Shown here: positions 82-64,000 of the stretch, piece by piece | How the letters are laid out: every line of letters starts with the position of its first letter | Numbering within the stretch: position 1 is the stretch's first letter | Origin: Candidatus Omnitrophota bacterium | GTDB taxonomy: Bacteria; Omnitrophota; Gorgyraeia; 2-01-FULL-45-10 | Direction of reading: 5' to 3' | DNA: 64,000 nucleotides | Assembly (NCBI GenBank): GCA_026387175.1 | Contig: JAPLME010000004.1 | Coordinates: forward strand, 447-64,446 | The notes under the pieces: model-generated | Databases searched by the model: none | What the model was told of the DNA's origin: nothing | What the model saw: the letters and a program-made list of their open reading frames with translations, nothing else | Made by a program: the position numbers and the translations under genes

Positions 82-101
82 GTTTGTACGATGAGATAAC
101 C

Positions 102-379: not shown

Positions 380-3333
<2,954 letters not shown>

Positions 3334-3417
3334 TTTTATTTTTGAAAATGGCATTGATGCGATGTTCGATCGCACCCATGTTCACTTAAATCAGTGTTGT
3401 CGGAGTTTTACAGAAAT

Positions 3418-14087: not shown

Positions 14088-14615
14088 ATGAAATCTCTTC
14101 CCGCCAGAAATTATTTTAAAACAGCGATAGCCCTTCTTGTTGTTATCCCAATCGCAGCATATCTGTATATAGCGGTTAAACAGAGCTTCAACAGGCGAAA
14201 TCCTATCGAGCTTTACGAGAGGAAATTGAAAGCCGCTCCCGAAAGCGTGAAGGCCAATAATGACATGGCCGTGGCTTATGAGAAGAAAGGCATGCACGAT
14301 AAAGCGATAAGCGTATATAACCGGATGTTGACTAAAGATTCGAACAATCCCGACCTGTATGTGAACCTCGCCGCCATTCAGATAAAAAAACGAAATCCCG
14401 AATCGGCTATAGCCTTGTGCGAAAAAGCCATAGAGCTGGAACCTGGCAATGCCACCGCTCATAACAATCTCGCCGTAGCTTATTACCTTCAAGGCGATTA
14501 CGAACTCGCTATAGAGCAATGCGATCTCGCCATCAAGTATGGCTACAAGGTAAAGTCCGAACTCCTCAATCTCCTTAAACCATACCGGGAGCAAGAAGAA
14601 ACGAATGAACATTGA
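14088..14615 (+). CDS. TPR-repeat protein with an N-terminal membrane anchor
   Basis: Several 34-aa TPR units (AVAY..KG..DKAI..Y...L repeated). Confidence 0.7.
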   Translation: MKSLPARNYFKTAIALLVVIPIAAYLYIAVKQSFNRRNPIELYERKLKAAPESVKANNDMAVAYEKKGMHDKAISVYNRMLTKDSNNPDLYVNLAAIQIKKRNPESAIALCEKAIELEPGNATAHNNLAVAYYLQGDYELAIEQCDLAIKYGYKVKSELLNLLKPYREQEETNEH

Positions 14616-18854: not shown

Positions 18855-18870
18855 AAATATAAGAAAGCCA

Positions 18871-19320
18871 ATGTCCAACGCTAAGAGAGTCGTATCTAAA
18901 CAATTGGGCGAGCTTTTGCTGGAGCGGGGCGTGATCAGCGAAGAACAGCTGAATAAAGCCCTGAAGGCCCAGGAGATTAACGGAGGCCTGATAGGTTATA
19001 TCCTTGTTTCGCTGGGTTACGCAAAAGAAGAGGAGATAGCTCAGGCGCTTACCGTGCAGTATGGTTTTCCGTATTTACCGCTTGAGTATTATGAGATAAA
19101 TACTGAGGCGATGAAGCTGATACCGCGGAACGTCGCCGAACAATACAATCTTATTGCGATAGATAAGATGGGCAACCTGTTGACTATAGCTATGTCGAAC
19201 CCCCTGAATGCTCAGGCGGTAGAGGATATTGAAATGATATCGAATTGCACGGTGCAGGTATTCGTGAGCACGATGTCCGACGTAACTAACGCGATAACCA
19301 AATACTACCAGAAAAAATAA
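18871..19320 (+). CDS. Stand-alone T2SS-E N-terminal (MshEN-like) domain protein, a putative c-di-GMP receptor
   Basis: KQLGELLLERGVISEEQLNKALKAQ fits the 24-residue MshEN motif RLGxxLxxxGxIxxxQLxxALxxQ. The rest is the GspII_E_N fold. There is no ATPase domain. Confidence 0.75.
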   Translation: MSNAKRVVSKQLGELLLERGVISEEQLNKALKAQEINGGLIGYILVSLGYAKEEEIAQALTVQYGFPYLPLEYYEINTEAMKLIPRNVAEQYNLIAIDKMGNLLTIAMSNPLNAQAVEDIEMISNCTVQVFVSTMSDVTNAITKYYQKK

Positions 19321-19328
19321 TCCTTTAA

Positions 19329-21062
19329 ATGACGCCCGGACTAAAAGAGAAACTTACAAAGATCCTGATAGATAAGAACCTCATAAAAGAGGATGACCTT
19401 CAGAAGGCCCTCGCGCTGCAGAAGGAAAAGGGCGGATCTTTAAGCGACGTGCTGATAGCCCTCAAGCTGATATCGAAGAATGACCTGATGATGGTAATCA
19501 GCGAGCATCTGGGTATCCCGCCCATAAATCTGAGCCGTTTTAAGATAGATCCCGCAGTTCTTAAACTTGTTTCCAGAAAAACCGCAAAGCATTATAAGAT
19601 AATGCCGATCGCTAAGATGGGTAATGTGCTGACGCTTGCTATAGCGGACCCTCTTAATATATTTGCCATCGATGATATAAAAGCCCTTACAGGGTTTAAG
19701 ATAGCCCCTATAGTTACTACCGAAAACGATATAAATTACGCTATAGGCCACTATTATGAGGAAGATACCTATGCCGCTATAGACAAGATAGTCACCGGTA
19801 TAAAAGGCGCTGATGGGGACGTGAAATTCATGGATGGCGCCGGCTCAGACGTCGGTGTGGAAGACATGACGGAGATCGCGCAGGAAGTTCCTGTAGTGAA
19901 GATAACGAATATGCTTGTCGCCGAGGGTCTAAAGATGCGCGCCAGCGATATACTTATCGAGCCGATGGAAAGAGAGCTGCGTGTCAGGTACAGGGTCGAC
20001 GGCATTTTGCAGGAGGGGCGAAGGCCCCCGAAGGTATTGCATAGCTCTATCGTGTCCAGGCTAAAGATTATATCGGATCTTGATATCGCGGAGCACCGCT
20101 TGCCCCAAGACGGCAGGTTTAAGATTAAGGTGTCCGGAAGGGAGGTCGACTTCAGGATATCGATCCTGCCATCGCGTATGGGAGAGAAGGTCGCGATCAG
20201 GATACTGGATAAGGCTCAGGCTACACTTGATATAAATAAACTTGGGATCGACCCGATATCCCTCGACAAGATAAAGAAATCAGCCGAGAGGCCGCATGGC
20301 ATGATACTCGTCTGTGGTCCGACGGGATGCGGAAAAACCACAACCCTCTATTCGATACTGCAGCTTATAAATTATCCGACGGACAACATAGTGACTGTCG
20401 AGGACCCGGTAGAGTATCTCATAGAAGGCATAAGCCAGGTGACCGCGCGGCCTGAAATAGGCCTCACCTTCGCCGCCGCGCTTCGTTCGATATTGAGACA
20501 GGACCCCGACTCAATAATGATAGGCGAAATACGTGATTTCGAAACCGTAGACATAGCTATAAAAGCGGCCCTTACGGGGCACCTCGTCTTAAGCACGCTG
20601 CATACGACGACGGCAACGGGCTCAATCATAAGGCTTGTCAATATGGGCCTTGAACCGTTCCTGATAGCGTCATCCCTGATAATGGTGGCCGCGCAGCGGC
20701 TTGTCCGAAAGATATGCCCCGGCTGCAAAGAGTCTTACGATCTCGATAAGGATATTGCCAGAAAAATCAACCTGGCGCCGGCATCCGGTAAAATTACTCT
20801 GTATCGGGGCAAGGGATGCCCTGACTGTCTGGGGACGGGATACAAGGGCCGGACCGCGTTGATAGAGGTCCTTATGCTTACTCCGAAGATAAAAGAGCTG
20901 GTCCTGGCAGGCGAGCAGGAGCATATTATAAGGGAAGCGGCAAGGCGCGAGGGCATGAAGACGCTTCGCGAAAATGGAATACAGAACGTGCTCGACGGTA
21001 TAACTACCCTCGACGAGGTAGTGCGCGTTACTGTCGGCGATCAGGACATGGATACGGTATAA
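19329..21062 (+). CDS. pilB: Type IV pilus assembly ATPase PilB (copy 1) with an N-terminal MshEN-like domain
   Basis: N-terminal LTKILIDKNLIKEDDLQKALALQ motif, Walker A GPTGCGKTTT, tetracysteine CPGC...CPDC zinc motif, GspE-family boxes. Confidence 0.9.
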   Translation: MTPGLKEKLTKILIDKNLIKEDDLQKALALQKEKGGSLSDVLIALKLISKNDLMMVISEHLGIPPINLSRFKIDPAVLKLVSRKTAKHYKIMPIAKMGNVLTLAIADPLNIFAIDDIKALTGFKIAPIVTTENDINYAIGHYYEEDTYAAIDKIVTGIKGADGDVKFMDGAGSDVGVEDMTEIAQEVPVVKITNMLVAEGLKMRASDILIEPMERELRVRYRVDGILQEGRRPPKVLHSSIVSRLKIISDLDIAEHRLPQDGRFKIKVSGREVDFRISILPSRMGEKVAIRILDKAQATLDINKLGIDPISLDKIKKSAERPHGMILVCGPTGCGKTTTLYSILQLINYPTDNIVTVEDPVEYLIEGISQVTARPEIGLTFAAALRSILRQDPDSIMIGEIRDFETVDIAIKAALTGHLVLSTLHTTTATGSIIRLVNMGLEPFLIASSLIMVAAQRLVRKICPGCKESYDLDKDIARKINLAPASGKITLYRGKGCPDCLGTGYKGRTALIEVLMLTPKIKELVLAGEQEHIIREAARREGMKTLRENGIQNVLDGITTLDEVVRVTVGDQDMDTV

Positions 21063-51368: not shown

Positions 51369-52109
51369 ATGTCCGAAAAAACAGCTAAAATATTAAAAGG
51401 CGTCCGCCATGGACGAATATCCGTCCATAAGGCGCTCTTATCGCTAAGGGATATGCCTTACAAGGATATCGGGTTCGCGAAGATCGACAGTCACAGGACC
51501 CTGAGGCGCGGTTTTCCGGAAGTGGTGTTTGGTAAAGGTAAGACCGTAGATCAGATAGTCGAAATATCAAAACGAATAATAGCCCATGACGGCATACTTC
51601 TTGTGACCCGCGCCCCGAAGGCAGCTTATCTGAAGCTTAGGCGGGCCTATCCAAAAGTTAAGTATGACGAGAGGGCCTCCTGCTTAAGTTACAGAGAAGA
51701 TCGTCCCATTCCGAAGAAAGGCCCGGTCCTGGTGATAACAGCGGGCACGGCCGATCTGCCTGTCGCGGAAGAGGCGCGCATAACTCTGGAGTTAATGGGA
51801 AACTCGGTCGAGATATTATGCGATGTCGGAGTCGCGGGAATACACAGGATACTCGATAAAAGGCACATTCTGGATAAGGCGAATGTCATAATAGTGATAG
51901 CGGGTATGGAGGGGGCGCTTGCGAGCGTAGTCAGCGGGCTAGTATCGAAGCCGGTGATAGCTGTTCCCACGAGCGTCGGCTACGGCGCAAGTTTCGAAGG
52001 GATAGCCCCGCTCCTTACGATGATGAATTCATGCTCGCCCGGAGTTTCGGTAGTCAATATCGATAACGGTTTCGGCGCGGGATATTTCGCATCCCTTATA
52101 AACAGATAG
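51369..52109 (+). CDS. larB: LarB-like PurE-family carboxylase/hydrolase (nickel-pincer cofactor biosynthesis)
   Basis: PurE-like fold with a LarB-specific N-terminal extension. GMEGALASVVSGL...VIAVPTSVGYGA. Confidence 0.75.
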   Translation: MSEKTAKILKGVRHGRISVHKALLSLRDMPYKDIGFAKIDSHRTLRRGFPEVVFGKGKTVDQIVEISKRIIAHDGILLVTRAPKAAYLKLRRAYPKVKYDERASCLSYREDRPIPKKGPVLVITAGTADLPVAEEARITLELMGNSVEILCDVGVAGIHRILDKRHILDKANVIIVIAGMEGALASVVSGLVSKPVIAVPTSVGYGASFEGIAPLLTMMNSCSPGVSVVNIDNGFGAGYFASLINR

Positions 52110-52115
52110 GATGCC

Positions 52116-53294
52116 ATGAAGATAGCGTATTTAGATTGTTTCAGCGGTATCAGCGGAGATATGACGATAGCCGCGTTTTTAGACGCGGGCTTAAAACTAC
52201 CCGTATTATCGGACGAGCTGAGTAAATTGAAGATAAAAGGCTATCGGCTTAAAGCCGGCAAGGTTAAGCGCGGAGCGATAGTCGGAACTAAATTTGATTG
52301 TATTGTCACAAAAGATTACAGCGGCCACAGGTCGTTAAAAAGCATAATCTCGATTATAGATAAGAGTTCGTTAAACCCCCGGATTAAAGCCATCTCTAAA
52401 GAGATGTTCAAAAATATAGGAAAGGCCGAAGCGAAGATACACGGGTCCGGAAAGAACGAAACTGTCTGGCTCCATGAGCTCGGCGACATAGATTCCATAA
52501 TAGATATCGTGGGCATCGCGATCGCGGTAGATTCGCTCGGCATCGACGAGGTTTACGCCTCGCGCGTAAATATGGGCAGGACATTCGTAAATACGGCCCA
52601 CGGGACCCTTCCGATACCGGCCCCCGCGGCGCTTGAGTTATTGAAGGGGGTGCCCACAAATATTCTGGACGTAGAAGCGGAACTTGTCACTCCTACCGGC
52701 GCAGGTTTATTAAAGACGCTTTCGAAAGGCTTCGGCGCGATGCCGTCGATGAAAATATCCGATATAGGCTACGGAGCGGGAACCAAAATAATTAAAGAGA
52801 TGCCTAATATGCTGCGTCTTATCATAGGGACGACGAGCGTGCCCTCGCCTAAAGAGGACAAGGTCCTGGTGGTCGAGACGAACATCGACGATATGAACCC
52901 GCAGTATTTCGAATATATTTTCGAGAGGCTGTTTTCCGCCGGAGCCCTCGACGTATATTCCACTCATATTCAGATGAAGAAGACGAGGCCTGCCTACAAG
53001 CTTACGGTGATATGCGAGCCGAAAGATCTGGATAAGATATCGTCGATAATATTCAGCGAAACCACGACGATCGGTATCAGGTTTTATGAGACGCTCAGGA
53101 TTAAGCTCGAAAGAAGGACAGTGAAGGCGAAGACGAAATATGGTAATATCCGGGTAAAGGTTAGCGCGCGCCCCGGTGAAATATTAACGGCTACGCCTGA
53201 ATACGATGATTGCCGTAAGGCCGCGCGCTCTAAGAAAGTACCGCTAAGAGAGGTTTCCGACAGGGCAAGGGAGGCCGCGTATGAAAACAGTTAA
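52116..53294 (+). CDS. larC: LarC-like (DUF111) nickel-insertion protein
   Basis: MKIAYLDCFSGISGDM N-terminus typical of LarC/DUF111. ~390 aa. Confidence 0.75.
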   Translation: MKIAYLDCFSGISGDMTIAAFLDAGLKLPVLSDELSKLKIKGYRLKAGKVKRGAIVGTKFDCIVTKDYSGHRSLKSIISIIDKSSLNPRIKAISKEMFKNIGKAEAKIHGSGKNETVWLHELGDIDSIIDIVGIAIAVDSLGIDEVYASRVNMGRTFVNTAHGTLPIPAPAALELLKGVPTNILDVEAELVTPTGAGLLKTLSKGFGAMPSMKISDIGYGAGTKIIKEMPNMLRLIIGTTSVPSPKEDKVLVVETNIDDMNPQYFEYIFERLFSAGALDVYSTHIQMKKTRPAYKLTVICEPKDLDKISSIIFSETTTIGIRFYETLRIKLERRTVKAKTKYGNIRVKVSARPGEILTATPEYDDCRKAARSKKVPLREVSDRAREAAYENS

Positions 53295-54951: not shown

Positions 54952-56229
54952 ATGACTAAAAAGCTTGACGCAATTATTTTTATTTTAATCGTAACAGTCG
55001 CGATGTGCGTGGTTTCGAGCGATTACGCTTATGCCGGTAACGCTTCACGTATGCTGGGATTTAGCGCGAGAGATGAAGCAATGGCCGGCGCTACCACTGC
55101 TTCCTCGGAGGATACATCATGCTTGGTGAGAAACCCCGCCGGACTTGTAAGGATAGGAAATAGGATCGACGCTTCGTATGAAAATCTTCTTTTTCACGAT
55201 GTAACGTTGAATACCACGGGGACCTCTCTTATACCAGGAGTGCCTTTTACAAACGCGGGTTTAACCCAGACCAGTAATATAAATTACATCCCCGGAGGTA
55301 ACGCAGGTGTTAGTTATCGCATACCGGGAACTGACAAATACCCGATATCTGTCGGTATGGGAGCATTTACAATAGGCGGGATGGCAGGTAACTACGCAAG
55401 TTCCAGGCTCAATACCGCATTATTGGCTAACGGGGGCAATTACGACAAGATGGTAGATTTAAGGACCATGAGATTTGCGCCGGGCATAGCGGCCGCATTT
55501 AACGATAAACTCTCTTTTGGTATGACAGCCAACATAGATCTTCAGGCATTACGCACCAATTTAGCTCACAGCATTACTCCTGCCGGGCTTACGCTTTTTT
55601 CAGAAACAGCGGGCGGAGGAAAATGGGATTTTACAGTTGGCGGAGGTTTCACCGCAGGCCTCCTATACGAGATTAATGATATGGTAAGCCTGGGAGCTTC
55701 CTACGAAAGCCACAACTGGCAGCAGGACCATTATAAATACAAAGATGTTCTGCCATATATAGATGAGCCGCCTATAATAAACTTGGGAGTATCTTTTAAG
55801 CCTATAAAGGATTTAGAGCTTACGTATGATACCCGCTATATTAACTGGACAGATGTGAAGCTTGCGAGGCTTGCTCCCAGACAAGGCGGTTTTGGGTGGA
55901 GGGACCAGTGGGTATTTGCTGTTGGTTCCGAATACACTACCTTTAAAGATAAGTTAAAACTCCGGCTTGGCTATAATTATGGAAGATCTCCTATTCAGCC
56001 GAATGTAGTCTTTGCCAATGCTCTTATGCCGGTAATTGTAGAGCACCATCTTACTACAGGCTTTTCATATTTTATCACGAAAGCCCTGTCTTTAGACTTT
56101 GCGTGGGAGCATCATTTTAGAAATACGATGGTGGACGATGGTGGCGATAGCGCGGATCTTATCGGCACAGGCACACAGGTTACAGGGGCATTGGATGTGC
56201 TAAGCATCGGATTAGGATATAAGTTTTAG
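54952..56229 (+). CDS. FadL/OmpP1/TodX-family outer-membrane hydrophobic-compound channel
   Basis: Signal peptide. Conserved N-terminal hatch NPAGL. Alternating amphipathic beta-strands. C-terminal aromatic residue (LGYKF). Lower GC and different codon usage than upstream genes. Confidence 0.75.
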   Translation: MTKKLDAIIFILIVTVAMCVVSSDYAYAGNASRMLGFSARDEAMAGATTASSEDTSCLVRNPAGLVRIGNRIDASYENLLFHDVTLNTTGTSLIPGVPFTNAGLTQTSNINYIPGGNAGVSYRIPGTDKYPISVGMGAFTIGGMAGNYASSRLNTALLANGGNYDKMVDLRTMRFAPGIAAAFNDKLSFGMTANIDLQALRTNLAHSITPAGLTLFSETAGGGKWDFTVGGGFTAGLLYEINDMVSLGASYESHNWQQDHYKYKDVLPYIDEPPIINLGVSFKPIKDLELTYDTRYINWTDVKLARLAPRQGGFGWRDQWVFAVGSEYTTFKDKLKLRLGYNYGRSPIQPNVVFANALMPVIVEHHLTTGFSYFITKALSLDFAWEHHFRNTMVDDGGDSADLIGTGTQVTGALDVLSIGLGYKF

Positions 56230-56261
56230 ATAACAGATCAGTTGTCAGGATTGTTTTCGAA

Positions 56262-56294
56262 ATAGGGGAGACATAAAACCTCCCCTATTTTTTC
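56262..56294 (+). terminator. Rho-independent terminator after the FadL-like gene
   Basis: ataggggag/ctcccctat 9-bp stem, 9-nt loop, then tttttt. Confidence 0.8.
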
Positions 56295-56333
56295 TGCATA
56301 CTGTTAATCCATTAAATATTAAGATATCATCTA

Positions 56334-56362
56334 TTGACAATCTAAAAAGTGTAGTGTATACT
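56334..56362 (+). promoter_or_regulatory. Perfect consensus sigma70 promoter P2 (ttgaca, 17 nt, tatact)
   Basis: Read directly from the sequence. Drives the 56.47-56.72 kb small-ORF region. Confidence 0.55.
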
Positions 56363-56477
56363 TTATGTAATAATAAAAGAAAGTTAGATAAAACTTAATA
56401 GCTCATCATTTTTATAGTGGTGGGCTATAATTGTCTCTGGCAAAATATAGATCTTTAATAAGAGGGAGGTGGTATGT

Positions 56478-56717
56478 GTGAGAGTGCTAGTGCTTCTTTC
56501 GAGTAATCCGGGAGATGGATTTTTGGTGAAGCTTCATACTGAAGAACTTGTGCGCGAGATTAAGAACCTTATCAGCAAGCGCAGTAATTCGAAAGCCATG
56601 GTAACAGCCCTTACTAAGGGGCGGATCGAGAGGGAGGTTGGGCACCACGATTCAAATGCTGTCGATGCCGAACTTGTTCTGACCCAAGATAGGGTTTGCT
56701 GGAATCCGGCTAAATAA
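56478..56717 (+). CDS. Hypothetical small protein (~79 aa from a GTG start)
   Basis: ORF-track ORF 56469-56717. A GTG at 56478 is 8 nt downstream of the strong SD gggagg. No recognisable domain. The alternative reading is a 10-codon ORF from ATG 56474 (MCESASASFE). Confidence 0.35.
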   Translation: MRVLVLLSSNPGDGFLVKLHTEELVREIKNLISKRSNSKAMVTALTKGRIEREVGHHDSNAVDAELVLTQDRVCWNPAK

Positions 56718-56827
56718 TCTTAAGCGATTTCAGAAAAATGCGTAAAATATTTAATTATTCCTATTTCTGCAACACATCCAATTCCAATAAGTTATATCAA
56801 TTTTTCCAAGTATTTAATTCCTAACTC

Positions 56828-56855
56828 TTGACAACCCCTAATTATCGTGTATACT
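56828..56855 (+). promoter_or_regulatory. Consensus sigma70 promoter P3 (ttgaca, 16 nt, tatact), paralogous to P1
   Basis: cctaactcttgacaacccctaattatcgtgtatactt. Followed by a 9-bp 5'UTR hairpin gtgccctta...taagggcac (about 56879-56908). Confidence 0.6.
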
Positions 56856-56963
56856 TTGCAGCACATTAGCGAAGTGTATGTGCCCTTATATAAAGCTATG
56901 TAAGGGCACAATAGTCTATACCAAAATAGTATAAACTATATAAATCAGAAGGTGGTGTTAGTT

Positions 56964-57161
56964 ATGGCAGATGATACCGTCTTCACTGTGCAGGAATTAT
57001 CCACTTACCTAAGGATGAAACCGGTAACTATTTACAAGCACGCAAAGGCTGGTAAATTGCCCGCATTCAAGGTTGGTGCGAGCTGGCGGTTTAAGAAATC
57101 GACTATAGACCGCTGGATTTCTAATCAGGAAGACAAAGAAAATAACGGCGGTTCAAATTAG
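56964..57161 (+). CDS. Excisionase-family helix-turn-helix DNA-binding protein (~65 aa)
   Basis: FTVQELSTYLRMKPVTIYKHAKAGKLPAFKVGASWRFKKSTIDRWI matches the excisionase/MerR-like HTH family. SD aaggtgg. ORF-track start 56952 (GTG); ATG 56964 is preferred. Confidence 0.7.
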   Translation: MADDTVFTVQELSTYLRMKPVTIYKHAKAGKLPAFKVGASWRFKKSTIDRWISNQEDKENNGGSN

Positions 57162-57164
57162 CGC

Positions 57165-57205
57165 CTGACTGTAATAATTAATAGTCAGGCGTTTTTATTT
57201 TAACT
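57165..57205 (+). terminator. Rho-independent terminator after the HTH gene
   Basis: gcctgact/agtcaggc stem with a 13-nt loop followed by tttttatttt. Confidence 0.7.
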
Positions 57206-57242
57206 AATAATGTCTATAAAAAAGATATGAGAGAAATATAGT

Positions 57243-57665
57243 ATGCTTAATATAGAAGAGATAAAGAGTCTTATACCGCAAAGATACCCTTTTCTTATGA
57301 TAGATAGGGTAATTGATATTAAATATGGGGAATATATAAAGGCTTATAAGAATATAAGCATGAATGAAGAGTATTTTAAGGGACATTTTCCTGATTCCGC
57401 GATCTTCCCCGGCGTCCTTACCACTGAGGCTATGGCCCAGGCCGTATGTGTACTGGTGAAGAAGAGCATTAAGGATTTTACCCCTACGCAGTTTTATATC
57501 ACTAATATGAAGATACGCTTTCTAAAGGCTATAGTGCCGGGGGACAGGCTTTATATTACCGCAAAAGTCGTCAAGATGGCGCAGATAGGCGGCATATTTG
57601 AGACGGAGGCTACCGTAGAGAATGACATTGTGGCCAAGGGAGAGATGACCTTTGCCTGCAAATAA
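57243..57665 (+). CDS. FabZ-like hotdog-fold 3-hydroxyacyl-ACP dehydratase
   Basis: LIPQRYPFLMIDRV, catalytic His in GHFP, catalytic Glu in TTEAMAQ. Low GC (~35 percent). Confidence 0.85.
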   Translation: MLNIEEIKSLIPQRYPFLMIDRVIDIKYGEYIKAYKNISMNEEYFKGHFPDSAIFPGVLTTEAMAQAVCVLVKKSIKDFTPTQFYITNMKIRFLKAIVPGDRLYITAKVVKMAQIGGIFETEATVENDIVAKGEMTFACK

Positions 57666-58902
57666 GAGAGTGGTTGTTACGGGAATAGGTATCATATCTT
57701 CAATAGGTACCGGCAAGGACGTGTTCTGGCAATCGCTAAGGGCCGGTAAGTCCGGAATAAGGCCGATCACATTATTCGATACCTCGACAACCAGAGCCAA
57801 AACAGCCGGAGAGATAACCGATTTCAAAGCGGAGAGTTTCTTGGGCGAAAGAGGATTAAGGACATTCGACAGGGTTACAAAACTGGTCCTGTCAGCGGCA
57901 AAGCTTGCGCTTGACGATACTGGTTTTAAATATCCGCTGGATGAGGATCTGTCGGTAAGGACAGGCGTATCTCTCGGGTCCACTCTCGGCAGTGTATGGT
58001 CCATAAGCGAATTTGATAAACAGGGATTAAGGGAAGGGCCAAGCACGGTGAATCCTGCGTTATTTCCAAATACTGTTATAAATGCCCCCGCAAGCCAGAT
58101 ATCTATTAAATATAATATAAAAGGCTTTAATACCACTATATCGACAGGATTTGCCTCAAGCTTAGACGCAATTGATTACGCGGCTAATTTCATTAAGTTA
58201 TATGACTATGACGTTGTCCTGGCGGGCGGGGTTGAAGAATTGTGTTTGCAGACATTCCTTGGGTTTCATAAGATAGGCCATCTGGCCGGCTCAAGAGAAG
58301 GTAAGGCGGAAGTGAATTGTCCTTTCGATAAGAGACGAAACGGCATAATCCTCGGAGAAGGCGCCTGTATATTTATACTGGAGGAGATGGAGCATGCCAG
58401 GAAAAGAGGCGCCAATATTTATGCCGAGATTTTAGGATACGGCGCGAGTTTTGATCCTAAGAGTAAGAATGTATACAGCCCTAAGGCTGATGGCGCGACA
58501 AGGGCGATAAAGCTTGCGCTGGAGGAATCCGGCACCGCGCCCGATGAGATCGATTATATATCGGCATGCGCTAACTCTACACTCGATTGCGATGTGATGG
58601 AGACGCGCGCGGTCAATCGTGTCTTTAGCGATAATGCGAAGAAGATACCGGTAAGCTCTATTAAATCCATGATAGGCGACACCTTCAGCGCGAGCGGCGC
58701 GATGAACGTCGCCGCTTCGATAGGCGCGATAAAAGAAAACTTCATACCGCCCACGATCAATTACGAGGTAAAGGATATACGATGTGACTTGGACTACGTG
58801 CCGAATAACTCTAGAGACAAAAAAGTAGCGAAAGTCCTGATAAACTCATTTACGCCCACGGGCGCGAACTCGAGCCTGGTAGTGGGAAAGGTCGCGGGAT
58901 AG
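57652..58902 (+). CDS. Ketosynthase-fold protein lacking the Cys-His-His triad (chain-length-factor / KS-beta-like partner)
   Basis: Thiolase/KAS fold throughout. The active-site TACxxG is replaced by STGFAS. HGTGT is replaced by CANST. The second His (GHT) is replaced by GDT. TTG start overlaps the FabZ-like gene. Confidence 0.8.
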   Translation: MPANKRVVVTGIGIISSIGTGKDVFWQSLRAGKSGIRPITLFDTSTTRAKTAGEITDFKAESFLGERGLRTFDRVTKLVLSAAKLALDDTGFKYPLDEDLSVRTGVSLGSTLGSVWSISEFDKQGLREGPSTVNPALFPNTVINAPASQISIKYNIKGFNTTISTGFASSLDAIDYAANFIKLYDYDVVLAGGVEELCLQTFLGFHKIGHLAGSREGKAEVNCPFDKRRNGIILGEGACIFILEEMEHARKRGANIYAEILGYGASFDPKSKNVYSPKADGATRAIKLALEESGTAPDEIDYISACANSTLDCDVMETRAVNRVFSDNAKKIPVSSIKSMIGDTFSASGAMNVAASIGAIKENFIPPTINYEVKDIRCDLDYVPNNSRDKKVAKVLINSFTPTGANSSLVVGKVAG

Positions 58903-58906
58903 AGAC

Positions 58907-60010
58907 ATGAGAAATGTTTTCATCACAGGCGCGACGGGATTTTTGGGTAGCTACTTATTGAAACGTATACTGGATGACGGTGATACGCGGCCGATTGTTC
59001 TGGCGAGGGGCAAAAAGACAGGATCGGCAGCCGAGAGAGTTAAAAATATAGCGAAATATTTTTACGGTGGCAATTACGCTACGGCACTTAAAAGGATCAG
59101 GGTGGTAGAGGGCGAGGTAGATAAAGAATTTCTCGGTATAGATAATGCGATTAGGAAGCCTCTCATTAAAGAGGTAGATGAGATTTATCATTCAGCGGCT
59201 ATAGCCGAGTTTCGCATACCGCTCGATAGGATACGAAGATCAAATGTTATCGGCACTGAAAATGTCCTTAAATTCGCGATGGAATGTAAGGCTTCCGGCC
59301 ATATGAAAAAACTGAATCATATAAGCACAACGTTTGTTGCCGGCAAAAAAAGCGGCGTATTTTATGAAAAGGATCTTGATGTTGGGCAGAAATTCAATAA
59401 TACATACGAGCAGAGTAAATTTGAGGCGGAAATCCTGGTGCATAAGTATATGAAAAAAGGACTTACCGCGGCCATATTCCGGCCCAGCATACTAACCGGC
59501 GATTACGTTGCAGGGAGAACTTCAAATTTTAAAATGCTTTATCAACCTCTGCGGTTCTTTGTTAGAGAGCTTTTTGATGCTATTCCGGCTGATAGATCGA
59601 CGTGTTTTAATATGATACCCGTAGATTTTACGGCGGAAGCTATTTGCGCTATCACCAAAGAGAATGAGTCCATAGGCGGAACGTATCACATAGCGAATAC
59701 GCGTATAATGCCATTGGGCAGCTTTATTGATGTAGCCAGTGATTTCTTTGGTTTTAAAAAGCCGGAATTCGTTCCCTTAAAAGACTTTAGCATGAATACG
59801 CTTACGACAGTTCAGAAAAACCTTATAGAGCCATATATTCCGTATTTTAATTACAAGACTATATTTGATTCAGTAAATACGATGGATATGCTAGAAGAAA
59901 AGGGCTTTCAGTGTCCGATTGTTGATACAGATTTTCTGGTTAAGCTATTTAAGTTTTGCGATGAGACTGGATTTATGAAAAGAAAGAAGCGATATGTTAC
60001 TGCAGGGTAA
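58907..60010 (+). CDS. Thioester-reductase-type (NAD_binding_4 / fatty acyl reductase-like) SDR protein
   Basis: ITGATGFLGSYLL Rossmann motif, catalytic YEQSK (YxxxK). ~370 aa with the C-terminal substrate domain typical of terminal R domains and acyl-ACP/CoA reductases. Confidence 0.75.
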   Translation: MRNVFITGATGFLGSYLLKRILDDGDTRPIVLARGKKTGSAAERVKNIAKYFYGGNYATALKRIRVVEGEVDKEFLGIDNAIRKPLIKEVDEIYHSAAIAEFRIPLDRIRRSNVIGTENVLKFAMECKASGHMKKLNHISTTFVAGKKSGVFYEKDLDVGQKFNNTYEQSKFEAEILVHKYMKKGLTAAIFRPSILTGDYVAGRTSNFKMLYQPLRFFVRELFDAIPADRSTCFNMIPVDFTAEAICAITKENESIGGTYHIANTRIMPLGSFIDVASDFFGFKKPEFVPLKDFSMNTLTTVQKNLIEPYIPYFNYKTIFDSVNTMDMLEEKGFQCPIVDTDFLVKLFKFCDETGFMKRKKRYVTAG

Positions 60011-60731
60011 AGTCGTAATAGTTACGGGCGGCACCCGCGGTATTGGCAGGGCTACTGTTTTTGAGTTCATCCAAAGTGGGGCCAAAGTGGTTTTTACATA
60101 TTTAAAGAGTGATGAATCAGCCGGAATAATATTGGATGAGATAAAGGAGATGGGTGGTGAGGCTGTGGCATTAAAGGCTGATACTCGCGATTACAAAGAA
60201 GCGAAAAGGGTTATTGAGGAAACAATTAATAAGTTTGGCACGGTCGATATCCTGGTCAACAACGCGGGGATAATTAAAGATAAAGCGCTTATGATGATGG
60301 ATCCTACAGAATGGCAAGAGGTTATCGACACTAATCTTACCGGTTATTTTAATATGGCAAAGGCATGCATCGTCACTATGCTGAAGCAGAAAAGCGGTAA
60401 CATTGTAAACATATCTTCTATCGCCGGTGTTGTGGGCACGCCGCGCCAGGTAAATTATTCGAGTGCTAAGGCCGGTATAATAGGTCTCACGAAGTCACTT
60501 GCAAAGGAAGTGGGCCCGTATAATATCAGGGTAAACGCTGTGGCGCCCGGCTATATCGAGACAGACATGACTAAAGATTTGAAGCAGAAAGAGAATCTTT
60601 TGAAGATGATACCCTCCGCAAGGTTCGGAAGGCCGGAAGATGTCGCAAAAGTTGTTTTATTTTTAGCAAGCAGCAAGGCAGGTTATATAACCGGACAAGT
60701 TATTAAAGTTGATGGCGGTTTAGCAATCTAA
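59994..60731 (+). CDS. 3-oxoacyl-ACP reductase (FabG-like ketoreductase)
   Basis: TGGTRGIGRA cofactor motif. NAG, S...YSSAK (S-Y-K triad). ~245 aa classical SDR. Confidence 0.88.
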   Translation: MLLQGKVVIVTGGTRGIGRATVFEFIQSGAKVVFTYLKSDESAGIILDEIKEMGGEAVALKADTRDYKEAKRVIEETINKFGTVDILVNNAGIIKDKALMMMDPTEWQEVIDTNLTGYFNMAKACIVTMLKQKSGNIVNISSIAGVVGTPRQVNYSSAKAGIIGLTKSLAKEVGPYNIRVNAVAPGYIETDMTKDLKQKENLLKMIPSARFGRPEDVAKVVLFLASSKAGYITGQVIKVDGGLAI

Positions 60732-60755
60732 TTTTAAATTAAGGAGACAGTATAA

Positions 60756-61010
60756 ATGGCTATTCAATCCGAAAATATTGAAAAAGAGATGCGCTCGCTT
60801 GTAGCTGAGATACTTGAGATACAAGAAGACAAGATAAAGCCGAGTATGAAATTTGTTGAGGAGCTCGGCATGGACTCTATGATGGCTCTTGAAATTCTTG
60901 CTTCGGCTGAGAAGAAATATAAGATTAAAATACCGGAAGAACATCTTACGAAAGTGACGACGCTTAAGAACCTGATCGAGGTAGTGCAGAATATCATGGA
61001 GAAGAAGTAA
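60756..61010 (+). CDS. Dedicated acyl carrier protein
   Basis: 84 aa. Phosphopantetheine attachment site LGMDSMMALE (DS motif). Acidic helix II. Confidence 0.85.
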   Translation: MAIQSENIEKEMRSLVAEILEIQEDKIKPSMKFVEELGMDSMMALEILASAEKKYKIKIPEEHLTKVTTLKNLIEVVQNIMEKK

Positions 61011-61015
61011 AACGC

Positions 61016-62227
61016 GTGCACAATAACAGAGTGGTGGTAACAGGTTTAGGGGTTGTAAGTTCTATCGGAATCGGCAAGGATAAATTTTGGAATAATCTAA
61101 TAGCTGGTAAATCGGGGGTAAGCAAGGTAGAGTCTTTTGACACCTCAAAATATGAAAATCATATGGGTGGGGAAATAAAAGATTTTGACCCGAATGATTT
61201 TATTAAAAAAGATAAAATCAAGAGATTGGGACGCGGATCTCAATTTGCTATTGCGGCAACGAAACTAGCCCTTTCTGATTCAGGAGTAGAATTCGAAAAG
61301 ATAGATAAGAATAGAATTGGTGCGATAATTGGCACAACAATGGCAGATTCTCAGAGACTGGAAGAGATGGATAAGACGTGGGTTGAAAGTAGCGAGAAAG
61401 ATGTGGATGCGAAATTGATACCGCAGTATCCCGGAAGCATTATCGCATCGAGCATAGGATTTGAGCTGGGTGTTCAAAATCTTGTATATTCTATACCGAC
61501 TGCCTGCTCAGCAGGTAATTATTGCATAGGGTATTCTTATGATATGATCAGGACAGGGAAAGCAGACTTTATGTTGGCAGGCGGCTCGGATTCTTTTTCA
61601 AGAGTTGCTTTTACTGGATTTAATCGCCTCTTTGCTGTGGCCCCAGAAAAGTGCCAGCCATTTGATAGGAATAGAAAAGGTATGATGGTCGGAGAGGGAT
61701 CCGGAGTTTTAGTTTTAGAATCATTAGATAGTGCGCGGAAAAGAAGAGCAAATATATATGCGGAAGTATTGGGATATGCCTTGAGCTGCGATGCTCATCA
61801 CATGACGGCTCCTTCGGTTGAAGGTATTTCACGTGTTATGAAGAAAGCGATAAAGAATGCGGATATTCATTCAGAAGATGTCGATTATATCTCGGCACAT
61901 GGAACGGGAACGCCGGCGAACGATAAGGCAGAGTGCGCGGCAGTGAAAGAAGTATTTGGCGATGGGTATAAAGAGGTGCCCGTTAGCTCTATTAAATCTA
62001 TGCTTGGCCATACAATGGGCGCCGCAAGCGCTATAGAAGCAATTACATGTTGCCTTGCGATAAAAGAAGGATCTATTCCGCCTACGATAAATTATGAAAC
62101 ATCGGATCCGGAGTGTGATATCGATTGCGTTCCCAACATTGCGAAAAAAAAGACCGTGCGAATCGCGCTGAATAACTCTCTTGCTTTCGGTGGGAACGAT
62201 GCATGCCTTGTACTGGGAAAGCTATAA
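61016..62227 (+). CDS. Beta-ketoacyl-ACP synthase (active KS, FabF-like)
   Basis: Active-site Cys in PTACSAGN. His in SAHGTGT. His in GHTMGAA. ~400 aa. Confidence 0.88.
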   Translation: MHNNRVVVTGLGVVSSIGIGKDKFWNNLIAGKSGVSKVESFDTSKYENHMGGEIKDFDPNDFIKKDKIKRLGRGSQFAIAATKLALSDSGVEFEKIDKNRIGAIIGTTMADSQRLEEMDKTWVESSEKDVDAKLIPQYPGSIIASSIGFELGVQNLVYSIPTACSAGNYCIGYSYDMIRTGKADFMLAGGSDSFSRVAFTGFNRLFAVAPEKCQPFDRNRKGMMVGEGSGVLVLESLDSARKRRANIYAEVLGYALSCDAHHMTAPSVEGISRVMKKAIKNADIHSEDVDYISAHGTGTPANDKAECAAVKEVFGDGYKEVPVSSIKSMLGHTMGAASAIEAITCCLAIKEGSIPPTINYETSDPECDIDCVPNIAKKKTVRIALNNSLAFGGNDACLVLGKL

Positions 62228-62230
62228 GAA

Positions 62231-63631
62231 ATGAAAAATAAATACGATGCGATTATAATCGGTGCTGGGATAAGCGGTCTTATTTGTGGAACATATCTTG
62301 CGAAAAATGGCCTAAAGGTGTTAATGCTGGAGAAAAATAAAAATGCTGGAGGTTGTTGTGCATCTTTTTATAGGAAAGGCATAAAATTTGACGCGGGCGC
62401 ACACATTATAGGAGAATGCGGTAAGGGTGGGATGTTGCGCACAATATTAACTTATCTTGGCGTTAATCAAAAATTTTATCAACCAAAATTTACTGATCGC
62501 ATATTTTTTCCAGAGGATATCGTTGAAATACCTAACGATTTAGCTGGGTATGCAGCTTTATTACAGCAAAAATTTAAAAAAGAGCGGAATAATATATCGC
62601 GATTTTTTAATAAATTCATCAGTTGTTCAAATATCGCAAATATAGCGCTGATTCAAAAAAATTATTCCGGCATTACCTACCAAGAATTGTTAAATAAATA
62701 TTTTATAAGTAACAGGTTGAAAGCGATTTTATCGGCTCAAAGCGGCTATTTAGGAGTAGCACCAAATAAAGTCAACGCGGCAGCTATGTGCGCAATGTTG
62801 TCCAGTTATTTGGCAAAGGGAGCATATTATCCGGTCGGGGGGTCTCAATCTTTTGCAGATAATATTATGAAAAGATTTATTTATTATGGTGGAGAGCTAA
62901 AGCTTGCATCACGCGTAAGTAGGATACTGCTAAGTAATGGTGCGGCTGAAGGCGTTGCAGTGAATGAAAAAGAAATCTTTAAAACAAATAAAATAGTCTC
63001 AAGCATAGATTTGCATACTACTTTATTCGAACTCCTAAAAAATGAAAAAATAAAATCTCAAGTTAAGACACGCTTAACTTTATCTAAAGAAACACCGTCA
63101 TTATTTGTTCTGTATTTAGGGGTAGCCGCTGATACAAAGTTAATAGAAAGAAGTGTCGGTTGGCATTACGCGCATTATGAAATAAATAAGTTTGAGTTTG
63201 ATGATTGTGTATATATAACGGCACCTACTTTATATGATAGCTCCTTGTCGCCAAAAGGTATACATGCTGTTCAACTATTTATAAAATCACGTTATGATTT
63301 TAATAGTATGCGGAATTGGCATGCTGCGAAAGACATCTTTATAAAAGAAGCGTTATTAAAACTTGATATGTTAATTCCAGGGGTGAAGGAAAAGATTACA
63401 GTTATTGAAAGCGCTTCTCCGGAAACTATCCGGCGATTTACAAATAATAAAAATGGAGCCGCTTATGGATGGATGCTTACAACGGGGCAATATGAACGAA
63501 ATAAAATAATTGCGCAAAATGTCAATGATGGTTTATTTTTAACAGGGCATTGGACAAACCCTGGCGGGGGTATAGTCGCTGTAGGTATTTCAGGATGCGC
63601 TGCGGCAAAAAAAATATTGAAAAGTTTATGA
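62231..63631 (+). CDS. CrtI/phytoene-desaturase-family FAD-dependent oxidoreductase
   Basis: N-terminal dinucleotide fold AIIIGAGISGLICGTYLAKNG...LEKNKNAGG. C-terminal HWTNPGGGIVAVGISG typical of the CrtI/amine oxidase family. Very low GC (~33 percent). Confidence 0.8.
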   Translation: MKNKYDAIIIGAGISGLICGTYLAKNGLKVLMLEKNKNAGGCCASFYRKGIKFDAGAHIIGECGKGGMLRTILTYLGVNQKFYQPKFTDRIFFPEDIVEIPNDLAGYAALLQQKFKKERNNISRFFNKFISCSNIANIALIQKNYSGITYQELLNKYFISNRLKAILSAQSGYLGVAPNKVNAAAMCAMLSSYLAKGAYYPVGGSQSFADNIMKRFIYYGGELKLASRVSRILLSNGAAEGVAVNEKEIFKTNKIVSSIDLHTTLFELLKNEKIKSQVKTRLTLSKETPSLFVLYLGVAADTKLIERSVGWHYAHYEINKFEFDDCVYITAPTLYDSSLSPKGIHAVQLFIKSRYDFNSMRNWHAAKDIFIKEALLKLDMLIPGVKEKITVIESASPETIRRFTNNKNGAAYGWMLTTGQYERNKIIAQNVNDGLFLTGHWTNPGGGIVAVGISGCAAAKKILKSL

Positions 63632-64000
63632 AAAATTCGATACTTGCAATAATTAAACATCGAAGAACTATCAGGACTTTTAATAATCGAAAAGTTACTA
63701 AAAATGTGCTTAAGAATATTTTAGAAGCTGGCAGATGGGCGCCCTGTCCTAATAATGTGCAACCATGGATTTTTTATGTCACAAAAAGAAATAATTTTTA
63801 TACTCAAAAAATCATAAAAATTATTCAAAAAGAATCAAAAAACGAAAGTATCGGGGTTTCCGTTTTTTTAAATGACTCGATCAAAATTTTTAAATCCGCA
63901 CCAATCATGATTTATATATTTAAAAAATGTATTTTAGCAAAAAGATACGCTGTTTTAGGGCCCTCTTATCAACAAAAAGGGGAGTTGTTTGAGCATCAAG
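63628..64000 (+). CDS. Nitroreductase-family protein (partial, runs off the window end)
   Basis: MKNSILAIIKHRRTIRTFNNRKVTKNVLKNILEAGRWAPCPNNVQPW matches the nitroreductase N-terminus (RRxxR, then AxxAPS-like). ATGA overlap with the upstream gene. Confidence 0.65.
   Translation, partial: MKNSILAIIKHRRTIRTFNNRKVTKNVLKNILEAGRWAPCPNNVQPWIFYVTKRNNFYTQKIIKIIQKESKNESIGVSVFLNDSIKIFKSAPIMIYIFKKCILAKRYAVLGPSYQQKGELFEHQ

Follow-up and report, generated by a model that had tools for sequence, protein, structure and literature searches.

What is left for a ketosynthase to do once all of its catalytic residues have been replaced? This question is raised by an open reading frame at positions 57652–58902 of a 64-kb stretch of DNA from an Omnitrophota bacterium (64,000 nt, hereafter the window), where it lies in a co-directional gene set that is probably an operon. 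An earlier note, based on a by-eye alignment, had described the encoded protein, here called KSmut, as an inert paralogue of a second ketosynthase encoded further downstream (hereafter KS 61016) and had assigned it the role of a chain-length factor or heterodimer partner. The features considered below are the following, with coordinates referring to the window.

56964–57161, + strand: HTH_17 DNA-binding protein, 65 aa (PF12728), directly upstream of the cluster
57243–57665, + strand: FabZ-type 3-hydroxyacyl-ACP dehydratase (PF07977; passes NCBIfam NF000582)
57652–58902, + strand: KSmut, dead FabF-fold ketosynthase paralogue, 416 aa (PF00109 and PF02801; F167, C306, K338, D343, P402)
58012–58131, + strand: helix-loop-helix segment of KSmut, residues 121–160, containing FPNTV (58063–58077) with F138, T141 and V142
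58907–60010, + strand: stand-alone thioester-reductase-like SDR (NAD_binding_4; PF07993, E 1e-54)
59994–60731, + strand: FabG-type 3-oxoacyl-ACP reductase (adh_short_C2; TIGR01830 equivalog, 303.4 against a cut-off of 297.75)
60756–61010, + strand: acyl carrier protein, ACP (PF00550)
61016–62227, + strand: active ketosynthase KS 61016, the proposed partner (C164, H295, K327, H332, gate F391); orthologue of anammox amxFabF2
62231–63631, + strand: phytoene-desaturase-family (CrtI/CrtISO-like) FAD oxidoreductase (PF01593, PF13450); counterpart of the anammox 'PDH'
63628–64000, + strand: nitroreductase-family ORF (PF00881, E 1.9e-13), overlapping the PDH stop codon in ATGA and continuing past the window end

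A catalytically dead ketosynthase with a complete FabF fold

The KSmut gene starts with a TTG codon and overlaps the stop of the FabZ gene by 14 nt. BLASTP aligned its product end to end with KS 61016 (38% identity over 412 aa, E 2e-91), in line with the full-length match proposed in the earlier note. The catalytic Cys of KS 61016 (C164 in TACSAG) corresponds to F167 in STGFAS of KSmut (codon 58150–58152), the first His (H295 in SAHGTGT) to C306 in SACANST (codon 58567–58569) and the second His (H332 in GHTMG) to D343 in GDTFS (codon 58678–58680); all three KSmut codons were checked in the DNA. The same assignments were obtained with phmmer against B. subtilis FabF and from MAFFT alignments of >150 homologues, and none of the three approaches yielded a register that places a Cys and two His at these positions. 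The claim that the entire triad is replaced thus stands, and the worry voiced alongside it, namely that the by-eye alignment might be shifted, can be set aside.

Losses extend beyond the triad: the gating Phe (F400 in E. coli) is Pro402 in KSmut, and Thr305 is replaced by Asn308. The structural Lys338 is kept. An AF2 monomer model (pLDDT 96, pTM 0.95) has the complete FabF fold, with B. subtilis FabF as its top fold match (TM 0.96, Foldseek); the PDB library used runs to April 2026 and does not include the anammox structure 9s5h, so that this match bears on the FabF fold and not on closeness to the anammox protein. For amxFabFmut, a dead ketosynthase of anammox bacteria, the closest structural homologue is likewise B. 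subtilis FabF (bioRxiv 10.64898/2026.05.19.726425). KSmut falls below every curated NCBIfam cut-off, scoring 388.6 against 493.75 for TIGR03150 and 373.3 against 387 for PRK07314, and KS 61016 passes the latter. KSmut is a catalytically dead, full-length FabF-fold ketosynthase.

Kinship with a crystallised anammox pair

The best PDB match of KSmut is 9s5h_C, Brocadia fulgida amxFabFmut (49% identity, 382–396 bits), ahead of the best canonical FabF (284 bits) and of 9s5h_B (about 276–277 bits). KS 61016 matches 9s5h_B, amxFabF2, best (57% identity, 478–512 bits, against only 224 for chain C), followed by Iga11 (6kxd_A, 362 bits). The two proteins are therefore reciprocal best matches of chains C and B. 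Furthermore, the tunnel and metal-site residues of KS 61016 (A163, F202, M334, E341, N386, N387 and F391) are conserved.

The lineage of amxFabFmut (Kuste3606/Broful02170/Scabro02228; chain C of PDB 9s5h and 9s5i) has been known in anammox bacteria since 2009, and its structure was solved in a 2026 preprint, in which it forms the inactive subunit of the amxFabF2/amxFabFmut heterodimer (amxFabFhet) of the anammox "ladderane Cluster I" (bioRxiv 10.64898/2026.05.19.726425). There, each subunit is inactive alone, whereas the two, when co-expressed, purify together, decarboxylate malonyl-ACP and produce acetoacetyl-ACP; elongation past acetoacetyl-ACP was not seen in vitro (bioRxiv 10.64898/2026.05.19.726425). 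Three residues of the dead Brocadia subunit, F135, T138 and V139, line the acyl tunnel of its partner in the crystal structure, and mutation of F135/V139 shifts the chain-length preference, as judged with non-physiological cross-linking probes in what is still an unreviewed preprint (bioRxiv 10.64898/2026.05.19.726425).

Scanning 185,579 species genomes with a single conserved peptide pattern returned 180 relatives, and KSmut shares at least 65% identity with >120 protein clusters. None of the 85 orthologous ORFs scored, which come from 81 distinct loci, has the triad, and the structural Lys is kept; the hosts of these loci are Omnitrophota, Nitrospirota/Thermodesulfovibrionia and anammox bacteria. 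In neighbour-joining (NJ) trees, with an E. coli FabF sequence that aligned as expected as the outgroup, the dead ketosynthases including the anammox members were monophyletic with 100% bootstrap, and the partner ketosynthases formed a clade with 78%. On these sequence grounds, KSmut is an Omnitrophota member of the amxFabFmut lineage, which itself is not new. Within this lineage the Cys position is most often Phe, with Y, T, E, V, M, H, Q, I, S or N as the other residues found, and among the orthologues scored the exact F/C/D combination is confined to this species. As for the suggestion that the Phe pattern may mark a distinct lineage, the clade is distinct and far from actinorhodin KS-beta, a subunit of a type II polyketide synthase (PKS), but it is the amxFabFmut lineage already known.

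The best PDB matches of the ACP are the anammox amxACPs 7qv0_D (46% identity), 7auf and 9s5i_E. FabZ retains its catalytic His and Glu and has amxFabZ (8ayd) as its top PDB match, with canonical FabZs scoring about equally. Its canonical tunnel Gly position, a column located with an E. coli FabZ sequence that aligned as expected, is occupied by Cys; Gly is missing from this position in all cluster-linked FabZs, and anammox amxFabZ has Ile. A second hallmark of amxFabZ is that a hydrophobic residue replaces Arg/Lys at position 115; in this protein the alignment around that site is uncertain by one column. The PDH-like protein scores below the cut-offs of the crtI_fam and carotenoid-isomerase models, with CrtI (4dgk) as its best PDB match; it is 38–40% identical to anammox PDHs and only 25–35% to most other Omnitrophota copies.

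The thioester-reductase-like SDR reaches 164 bits with TIGR01746, under the cut-off, and in the PDB it comes closest to the MxaA reductase (4u7w), PKS/NRPS R domains and CAR; it would probably free the chain from the ACP as an aldehyde or alcohol. Among 39 related loci that are fully flanked (6 kb or more to either side of the KSmut gene), a thioester reductase is present in only 7 and FabG in 31. The 65-aa HTH_17 protein is a possible regulator of the cluster: the same gene precedes the cluster in two related loci (L004 and L005, the second of which also holds a nitroreductase), and here it is followed by a terminator-like hairpin (57160–57193), with a promoter-like site at 56828. Upstream repeats of TTGACA-N17-TATACT were considered as a cluster-specific regulatory site and rejected, as this strong promoter-like consensus also turns up in unrelated intergenic regions of the window.

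A proposed live/dead pair and its alternatives

We propose that KSmut is a chain-length-factor-like partner of KS 61016 and that the two most probably form an obligate heterodimer. The earlier note had reached the same kind of role from the residue losses; the reciprocal matches to 9s5h support it, and the pairing in this organism is carried over from the anammox homologues. Only the active site of KS 61016 would work in such a dimer. KS 61016 would decarboxylate malonyl-ACP and self-prime to acetoacetyl-ACP, and the chain would then be extended on the cluster's own ACP. The helix-loop-helix of KSmut would lend a wall to the acyl tunnel of its partner through F138, T141 and V142, the counterparts of Brocadia F135, T138 and V139, and may in this way affect the range of chain lengths that the pair takes. 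That such proteins set product length, as stated in the earlier note, has its backing, for this lineage, in cross-linking assays on the anammox homologue, and for KSmut it is an extrapolation. Together, FabZ, FabG, ACP, the ketosynthase pair, the reductase, the CrtI-like flavoenzyme and the nitroreductase could make up a FAS-II-like line; its product might be a specialised acyl chain, possibly unsaturated, that is reductively released as an aldehyde or alcohol.

Conservation within the family fits this picture. In the KSmut family conservation peaks over residues 121–160 (mean 0.73–0.82), whereas the counterpart in the partner ketosynthase is the least conserved stretch of that protein (0.36–0.48). 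FPNTV is nearly invariant, with F138 present in 80/80 sequences, T141 in 75/80 and V142 in 76/80. The vestigial first-His position, by contrast, is free to vary (S, N, C, T, A or G), and we count this combination in favour of a tunnel role for KSmut. The residues near the dead site are also strongly conserved among the orthologues (N308, K338, D/E343 and F/Y167), a pattern with which a surviving binding function would be compatible. A near-invariant tunnel segment, the pocket residues F/Y, N, K and D/E and a variable first-His position can serve as a signature of the class.

Rates of change were compared by dN, as dS was saturated in all comparisons but one. Among relatives, dN was 0.125–0.186 for KSmut and 0.207–0.327 for the active ketosynthase, and the single pair with an estimable dS gave a dN/dS of ∼0.06 for KSmut, albeit with dS near saturation. 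These values suggest that purifying selection on KSmut is at least as strong as on the active enzyme.

The earlier note had also raised the question of whether homologues always co-occur with an active ketosynthase. They mostly do: of the 39 fully flanked loci, 32 hold an intact partner ketosynthase (CHKH) within 8 kb, 32 an ACP, and 32 both. In the remaining seven, mostly from one Omnitrophota subclade, there is no ketosynthase within 10 kb; all seven have just FabG beside KSmut, joined by FabZ in six of them. The partner may be encoded elsewhere in these genomes, or KSmut acts differently there. Proteins of ∼800 aa that join two ketosynthases offer circumstantial support for live/dead pairing in general: among the top representatives, 40 out of 40 combined an intact N-terminal half with a dead C-terminal half. 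Against pairing, we count the 2.1-kb gap between the KSmut and KS 61016 genes, which is filled by the reductase, FabG and ACP and makes KS 61016 the fourth gene downstream, and the fact that Scalindua amxFabFmut crystallises as a homodimer (bioRxiv 10.64898/2026.05.19.726425). The net charge of the helix-loop-helix and contact helix was more positive in KSmut than in the ketosynthase in 24 of 61 pairs, a proxy that misses the published electrostatic asymmetry even for the Brocadia pair.

The alternative that survives best, to which we would give about one chance in four, retains the live/dead heterodimer but makes the cluster the main membrane fatty-acid synthase (FAS II) of this organism, in place of a specialised or secondary lipid pathway; chain elongation by FAS II in Omnitrophota would then depend on an obligate ketosynthase heterodimer. 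FabG and FabZ indeed pass housekeeping equivalog cut-offs and KS 61016 passes the FabF subfamily cut-off (NCBIfam), in distant relatives the cluster lies within a conserved neighbourhood of housekeeping genes (tsaD, mgtC, larB and larC), one Omnitrophota subclade keeps just KSmut, FabG and FabZ together, and the 64-kb window contains no further fab genes. However, enoyl reductase, FabD and FabH are absent from the cluster, and the thioester reductase, CrtI-like oxidoreductase and nitroreductase are not parts of FAS II. The low number of relatives in the genome scan further suggests that the cluster is probably not phylum-wide, as far as a single-pattern scan can tell. For Omnitrophota, a 2026 preprint counts 176 complete genomes.

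Alternatively, KSmut could do without KS 61016, by forming homodimers or joining other proteins, and bind acyl- or malonyl-ACP without condensing it, for example as a scaffold, gatekeeper or priming decarboxylase that works through its remodelled pocket. The conserved pocket residues (N308, K338 and D/E343 invariant, F/Y167 almost so), the seven loci without a nearby ketosynthase, the Scalindua homodimer crystals and a second open tunnel that leads to the dead site in Brocadia (bioRxiv 10.64898/2026.05.19.726425) would all agree with this. Yet on its own the dead anammox subunit was inactive in decarboxylation, condensation and cross-linking alike, and in the homodimer its helix-loop-helix is disordered (bioRxiv 10.64898/2026.05.19.726425). 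Moreover, both decarboxylation His residues are missing from KSmut, and the strongest family-specific constraint falls on the segment facing the partner tunnel, not on the dead pocket. We consider this explanation improbable.

Even less probable, to a marked degree, is that KSmut has kept condensing or acyltransferase activity by way of another nucleophile such as Cys306. The first His is replaced by Cys in KSmut, in the Scalindua protein and in many of the orthologues from Nitrospirota, but the variability of this position across orthologues does not fit a conserved catalytic residue, the gate Phe and both His are gone, and the anammox proteins, the type with a Cys among them, are described as inactive (bioRxiv 10.64898/2026.05.19.726425). 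Finally, the idea that KSmut is a copy of the neighbouring ketosynthase that has lost its function and is decaying, as the loss of every catalytic residue might suggest, is effectively refuted and carries a negligible probability, given an intact 416-aa ORF with a confident AF2 model, a broad set of close homologues in one well-supported clade spanning at least three phyla, and a dN below that of the active partner.

Comparison with known systems

Among systems that combine a live with a dead ketosynthase, the aryl-polyene pair ApeO/ApeC resembles the proposed one in having an active ketosynthase with an inactive partner like a chain length factor (CLF), and precomputed Pfam hits flag the dehydratase in the window as ApeI/ApeP-like. 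However, ApeC is missing from the 60 best PDB matches of KSmut, and accessory genes of the aryl-polyene type are absent from the cluster. Iga11/Iga12, from the highly reducing type II PKS that makes ishigamide (6kxd), is likewise a reducing KS/CLF system with ketoreductase and dehydratase. Here, too, the dead subunit Iga12 (6kxd chain B) is missing from the best 60 sequence and best 50 fold matches of KSmut, so that the two dead subunits seem to be independent in origin.

Actinorhodin KS-beta (ActI-ORF2, 1tqy_B) is also a dead ketosynthase paralogue that pairs with an active one and shapes its tunnel. Aromatic type II PKS chain length factors typically have Gln at the Cys position, which in KSmut is Phe167, and the surroundings of KSmut are reducing FAS-type genes, unlike those of type II PKS KS-beta. 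KS-beta chains did not appear among the best 60 PDB sequence matches or best 50 fold matches of KSmut, whereas canonical FabFs and KS-alpha chains did; one member of the KSmut family (P0158) scored 337 bits with 9s5h_C and 149 with 1tqy_B. For Kuste2805, a 'non-canonical FabB' encoded in a second anammox cluster, the residues Phe163, Asn300, Lys328 and Glu333 are listed (Rattray et al. 2009). This Phe/Asn/Lys/acidic pattern is shared with F167, N308, K338 and D343 of KSmut, a likeness that concerns the listed residues alone; the cluster of Kuste2805 includes a radical-SAM enzyme and an ACP synthase.

The nearest system remains amxFabFmut, which shares with KSmut the FabF fold, the missing Cys-His-His triad, the kept Lys, the tunnel residues F/T/V and the clade. 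Indeed, all of the Cluster I components ACP, FabZ, FabF2, FabFmut and PDH have counterparts at 57243–63631, namely an amxACP-type ACP, a FabZ without the tunnel Gly, an amxFabF2-type ketosynthase, KSmut and a CrtI-like PDH, although the gene order differs and extra genes are present. There are also differences. The host is an Omnitrophota bacterium here and a planctomycete there, the Cys position is Phe in KSmut and Val, Thr or Glu in the anammox proteins, the dead and live ketosynthase genes are apart here and adjacent in anammox bacteria, and FabG, the thioester reductase and the nitroreductase are absent from the anammox cluster. In all four anammox loci, PDH is followed by a B12 radical-SAM enzyme, whereas the nitroreductase takes this place in the window. 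A tblastn search of the 64-kb window with the Scalindua B12 radical-SAM enzyme gave no match (best E 0.17), and among the related loci no orthologue was found outside the four anammox ones. The Nitrospirota locus L056 has a B12 radical-SAM gene coupled to PDH, 7 kb away from its ketosynthase pair. A radical-SAM gene at 14605–16311 was rejected as the anammox enzyme, being of the Radical_SAM_N2 type, 40 kb away and without meaningful similarity.

Two papers treat Cluster I as exclusive to ladderane producers. Orthologous live/dead ketosynthase pairs, together with ACP, FabZ and CrtI-like partners and without the anammox radical-SAM enzyme, occur in many Omnitrophota and Nitrospirota genomes; judging by these orthologues, this type of heterodimer would be neither specific to ladderanes nor confined to anammox bacteria. 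A tentative reading, which we hold to be possible though not the likelier one, is that the Cluster I core (ACP, FabZ without the tunnel Gly, live and dead ketosynthases and CrtI-like oxidoreductase) is an older, heterodimer-based lipid module of Omnitrophota/Thermodesulfovibrionia, to which anammox bacteria added only the B12 radical-SAM enzyme. The module would then make an as yet uncharacterised lipid in these groups, or might even be their main fatty-acid synthase, and if this holds, the B12 radical-SAM enzyme is pointed to as the ladderane-specific step. As an example of a dead ketosynthase serving as a structural partner, KSmut itself is an ordinary case, and its family context is more useful. 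The only characterised relatives are those of anammox bacteria, which are not genetically manipulable and whose cluster was assumed to be ladderane-specific; the family flags uncultured phyla as producers of an uncharacterised lipid, and a subtractive comparison of their clusters with anammox Cluster I is now possible as a route to the ladderane-specific steps.

A ketosynthase without a catalytic triad

The ORF at 57652–58902 (+ strand; hereafter KSmut) starts with TTG, shares 14 nt with the end of the FabZ gene before it, encodes 416 aa and contains both ketosynthase (KS) Pfam domains; it passes the cut-off of no NCBIfam model. As the earlier note had described, it aligned end to end with the active KS at 61016–62227 (BLASTP, 38% identity over 412 residues, E 2e-91), with Phe167 opposite Cys164, Cys306 opposite His295 and Asp343 opposite His332. 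Since phmmer against B. subtilis FabF and MAFFT alignments of >150 homologues gave identical assignments, the by-eye alignment behind that description was not shifted, and all three catalytic residues are indeed replaced. The structural Lys is retained (K338); the gating Phe (now Pro402) and one Thr C-terminal to the first His (now Asn308) are also lost. The AlphaFold2 model (pLDDT 96, pTM 0.95) has a complete FabF fold, with B. subtilis FabF as top structural match (TM 0.96). A Candidatus Omnitrophica MAG encodes a protein identical to KSmut.

KSmut is part of a co-directional gene set with short gaps or overlaps. The rest of the window is housekeeping in character (rRNA and tRNA genes, EF-G, RuvABC, type IV pilus genes, ArgRS, GatA/B, TsaD, LarB/LarC).

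Genes of the co-directional set, in order
Upstream of FabZ, +: gene 1, HTH_17 protein, 65 aa
Starts 57243, +: gene 2, FabZ
Starts 57652, +: gene 3, dead KS (KSmut)
Starts 58907, +: gene 4, thioester-reductase-like SDR
Starts 59994, +: gene 5, FabG
Starts 60756, +: gene 6, ACP
Starts 61016, +: gene 7, active KS
Starts 62231, +: gene 8, CrtI-like FAD oxidoreductase
63628–64000, +: gene 9, nitroreductase-family ORF (PF00881), continuing past the window end

An ATGA overlap joins the start of the nitroreductase ORF to the CrtI-like stop codon; as the related cluster L005 also contains a nitroreductase, such a gene may recur among these clusters. The spacer at 56230–57242 is long and AT-rich (37% GC). 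Within it lie an 82-aa ORF without a Pfam match (56469–56717), with a promoter-like site close to consensus (56334) and a hairpin (56398–56428) ahead of it, and the HTH_17 gene, which has a second promoter-like site (56828) on its 5′ side and a terminator-like hairpin (57160–57193) on its 3′ side; the HTH_17 gene is conserved ahead of the cluster in L005 and another related locus, L004. Just upstream of the cluster, this species encodes a FadL/TodX-type outer-membrane transporter for hydrophobic compounds (54952–56229), which is not at the same position in L004 and L005. Two nickel-pincer cofactor genes, LarB-like (AIRC) and LarC-like (Ni_insertion), at 51369–53294 belong to a block conserved upstream of the cluster in the window, L004 and L005, with LarC fused to a PDZ protein in L005; no LarA or LarE was seen within the 64-kb window. 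Essentially all credible genes of the window lie on the + strand, cumulative GC skew rises monotonically over 1–64000, and tRNA-Ile, tRNA-Ala, 23S and 5S rRNA occupy its start (5–3535).

The cluster itself (57243–64000) is compositionally mosaic: GC3 of the dead KS (0.52) is near that of the flanking housekeeping genes (0.55–0.65), and values of 0.37, 0.41, 0.28 and 0.25 were found for the active KS, the reductase, the CrtI-like gene and the nitroreductase. Together with the CrtI-like protein sharing 38–40% identity with anammox copies but 25–35% with the copies at most other Omnitrophota loci, this suggests that the 3′ part of the cluster was replaced by transfer.

Kinship with an anammox live/dead pair

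The proposal that KSmut is an inert KS partner akin to chain-length factors was supported by reciprocal matches to a known pair and by a conserved tunnel motif. The best solved relative of KSmut is PDB 9s5h chain C (396 bits, 49% identity; best canonical FabF, 284 bits), and that of the active KS is chain B (512 bits, 57% identity). Because the cross comparisons are far weaker (277 bits for KSmut against chain B, 224 bits for the active KS against chain C), the two window genes are, as judged from their sequences, orthologues of the two chains, and KSmut is a new member of an already known family, the dead ketosynthase partners of amxFabFmut type. The 9s5h structure is the heterodimer of amxFabF2 (live) and amxFabFmut (dead) from Brocadia fulgida, whose genes are located in the anammox "ladderane Cluster I"; each protein alone is inactive, and upon co-expression the two co-purify, decarboxylate malonyl-ACP and form acetoacetyl-ACP (2026 preprint, bioRxiv 10.64898/2026.05.19.726425). 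In the same study, the live subunit's acyl tunnel was lined by three residues of its dead partner (F135, T138, V139), and their mutation altered chain-length preference in cross-linking assays.

KSmut retains the FPNTV motif (F138, T141, V142), which is widely conserved (F in 80/80, T in 75/80 and V in 76/80 sequences). Conservation of the dead-KS family peaks at residues 121–160, a helix-loop-helix reaching into the partner's tunnel (bioRxiv 10.64898/2026.05.19.726425), and the same stretch is the conservation minimum of the partner KS family; around the catalytic motifs this contrast is reversed. Furthermore, dN against close relatives is lower for the dead KS than for the live KS of the same genomes. 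Both observations argue strongly against a decaying duplicate and are as expected for a subunit that would shape its partner's substrate tunnel and the dimer interface. In this organism, we infer that KSmut forms a heterodimer and controls chain length. Live/dead pairing in general finds circumstantial support in natural fusions: 40 of the top 150 representatives (P0122, P0123, P0127 and 37 others) are double-KS proteins of ~800 aa, 27–38% identical to the window proteins, with a triad-less C-terminal half in 40/40 and Cys-His-Lys-His intact in the N-terminal half of all except P0180 (C-H-D-D).

The likeness to chain-length factors would be one of function. Neither the 60 best PDB sequence matches of KSmut nor its 50 best fold matches include KS-beta, Iga12 or ApeC chains, FabFs and active KS-alpha chains being present among them, and a member of the family in which Gln occupies the Cys position scores 337 bits against the anammox dead subunit versus 149 bits against actinorhodin KS-beta. 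On these grounds, KSmut lies outside the KS-beta family.

Distribution of KSmut and its partner

A scan covering one genome for each species recovered 80 loci, each 49–80% identical to the query, most from Omnitrophota and many from Nitrospirota/Thermodesulfovibrionia, with one in a deltaproteobacterial MAG and four in anammox bacteria. The triad is missing from every KSmut orthologue: most have Phe in place of the Cys, one Nitrospirota subclade has Tyr, and the anammox proteins have Thr or Glu; the first-His position is variable (N, S, C, A, T or G), the Lys never changes, and an acidic residue (Glu or Asp) invariably replaces the second His. Among the orthologues scored, the exact F/C/D combination is confined to this species. 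The full Cys, His, Lys, His set is present in every partner KS. In neighbor-joining trees, the dead-KS proteins form a single clade (100% bootstrap) and the partner KSs a separate one (78%), each with the anammox sequences as one subclade.

The earlier note had asked whether an active KS always accompanies KSmut. This holds for 32 of the 39 loci with ≥6 kb on each side, but not for the other seven, which have no active KS within 10 kb. ACP (32/39), FabG (31/39), FabZ and the CrtI-like gene (28/39 each) are similarly frequent, and the reductase is present in 7/39. The seven reduced loci, all from Omnitrophota, consist of KSmut and FabG plus either FabZ without ACP (L023, L024, L025, L027, L040, L051) or ACP (L009); apart from L009, they form one subclade with an F/N/K/E pattern. 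In these genomes, either the partner is encoded elsewhere or KSmut acts differently.

The cluster is often followed by a third, triad-intact KS, in most cases close to the CrtI-like gene (L006, L016, L061, L066, L067, L069, L071, L072, L076, L077); this KS shares about 26–31% identity with the window KS and branches as a separate clade, and the window stops before any such gene could appear. Records titled 'uncultured Planctomycetia/Planctomycetales' (L007, L010, L015, L021, L027, L030 and others) group with Omnitrophota in both KS trees, so these labels may be unreliable.

Predicted product and comparison with Cluster I

The pathway product can be outlined by inference. The best matches of the reductase are terminal reductases of PKSs and NRPSs, which suggests that the chain leaves as an aldehyde or alcohol. 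As the cluster has no enoyl reductase, the product is possibly unsaturated, or flavoenzymes possibly take the reductase role. The cluster may belong to a specialised pathway or may be the main fatty-acid synthase of the organism; lipid synthesis is not discussed in two papers on Omnitrophota genomes.

Likeness to Cluster I extends beyond the KS pair. The window ACP best matches anammox amxACPs, and the top match of FabZ is amxFabZ, although canonical FabZs score similarly. Both the window FabZ and amxFabZ lack the canonical tunnel Gly, at a column placed by reference to E. coli FabZ. In contrast, all four anammox loci carry a B12 radical-SAM gene directly 3′ of the CrtI-like gene; orthologues were found only in these four among the related loci, and the window has no counterpart. 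The radical-SAM protein at 14605–16311 (Radical_SAM_N2 N-terminal domain), considered as a candidate, is unrelated. A Nitrospirota locus (L056, MAG221, 18178–20962) is the only non-anammox one with a B12-binding radical-SAM gene adjoining the CrtI-like gene. This radical-SAM gene (30% identity to the anammox enzyme) overlaps the CrtI-like gene at the latter's 5′ end, 7 kb from a KSmut-KS-ACP set, with toxin-antitoxin-like small ORFs between. Non-anammox clusters additionally have FabG and sometimes a thioester reductase, nitroreductase or third KS, and in two relatives with long contigs a histidine kinase comes next after the cluster.

Cluster I has been described in two papers as exclusive to ladderane producers. 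At the level of the five-gene core, gene content contradicts this claim; a survey had earlier reported, but not analysed, antiSMASH "ladderane" calls from Omnitrophota as well as from other phyla. KSmut is of value mainly as comparative context for the unresolved ladderane pathway and as a marker of an uncharacterised lipid pathway in Omnitrophota.
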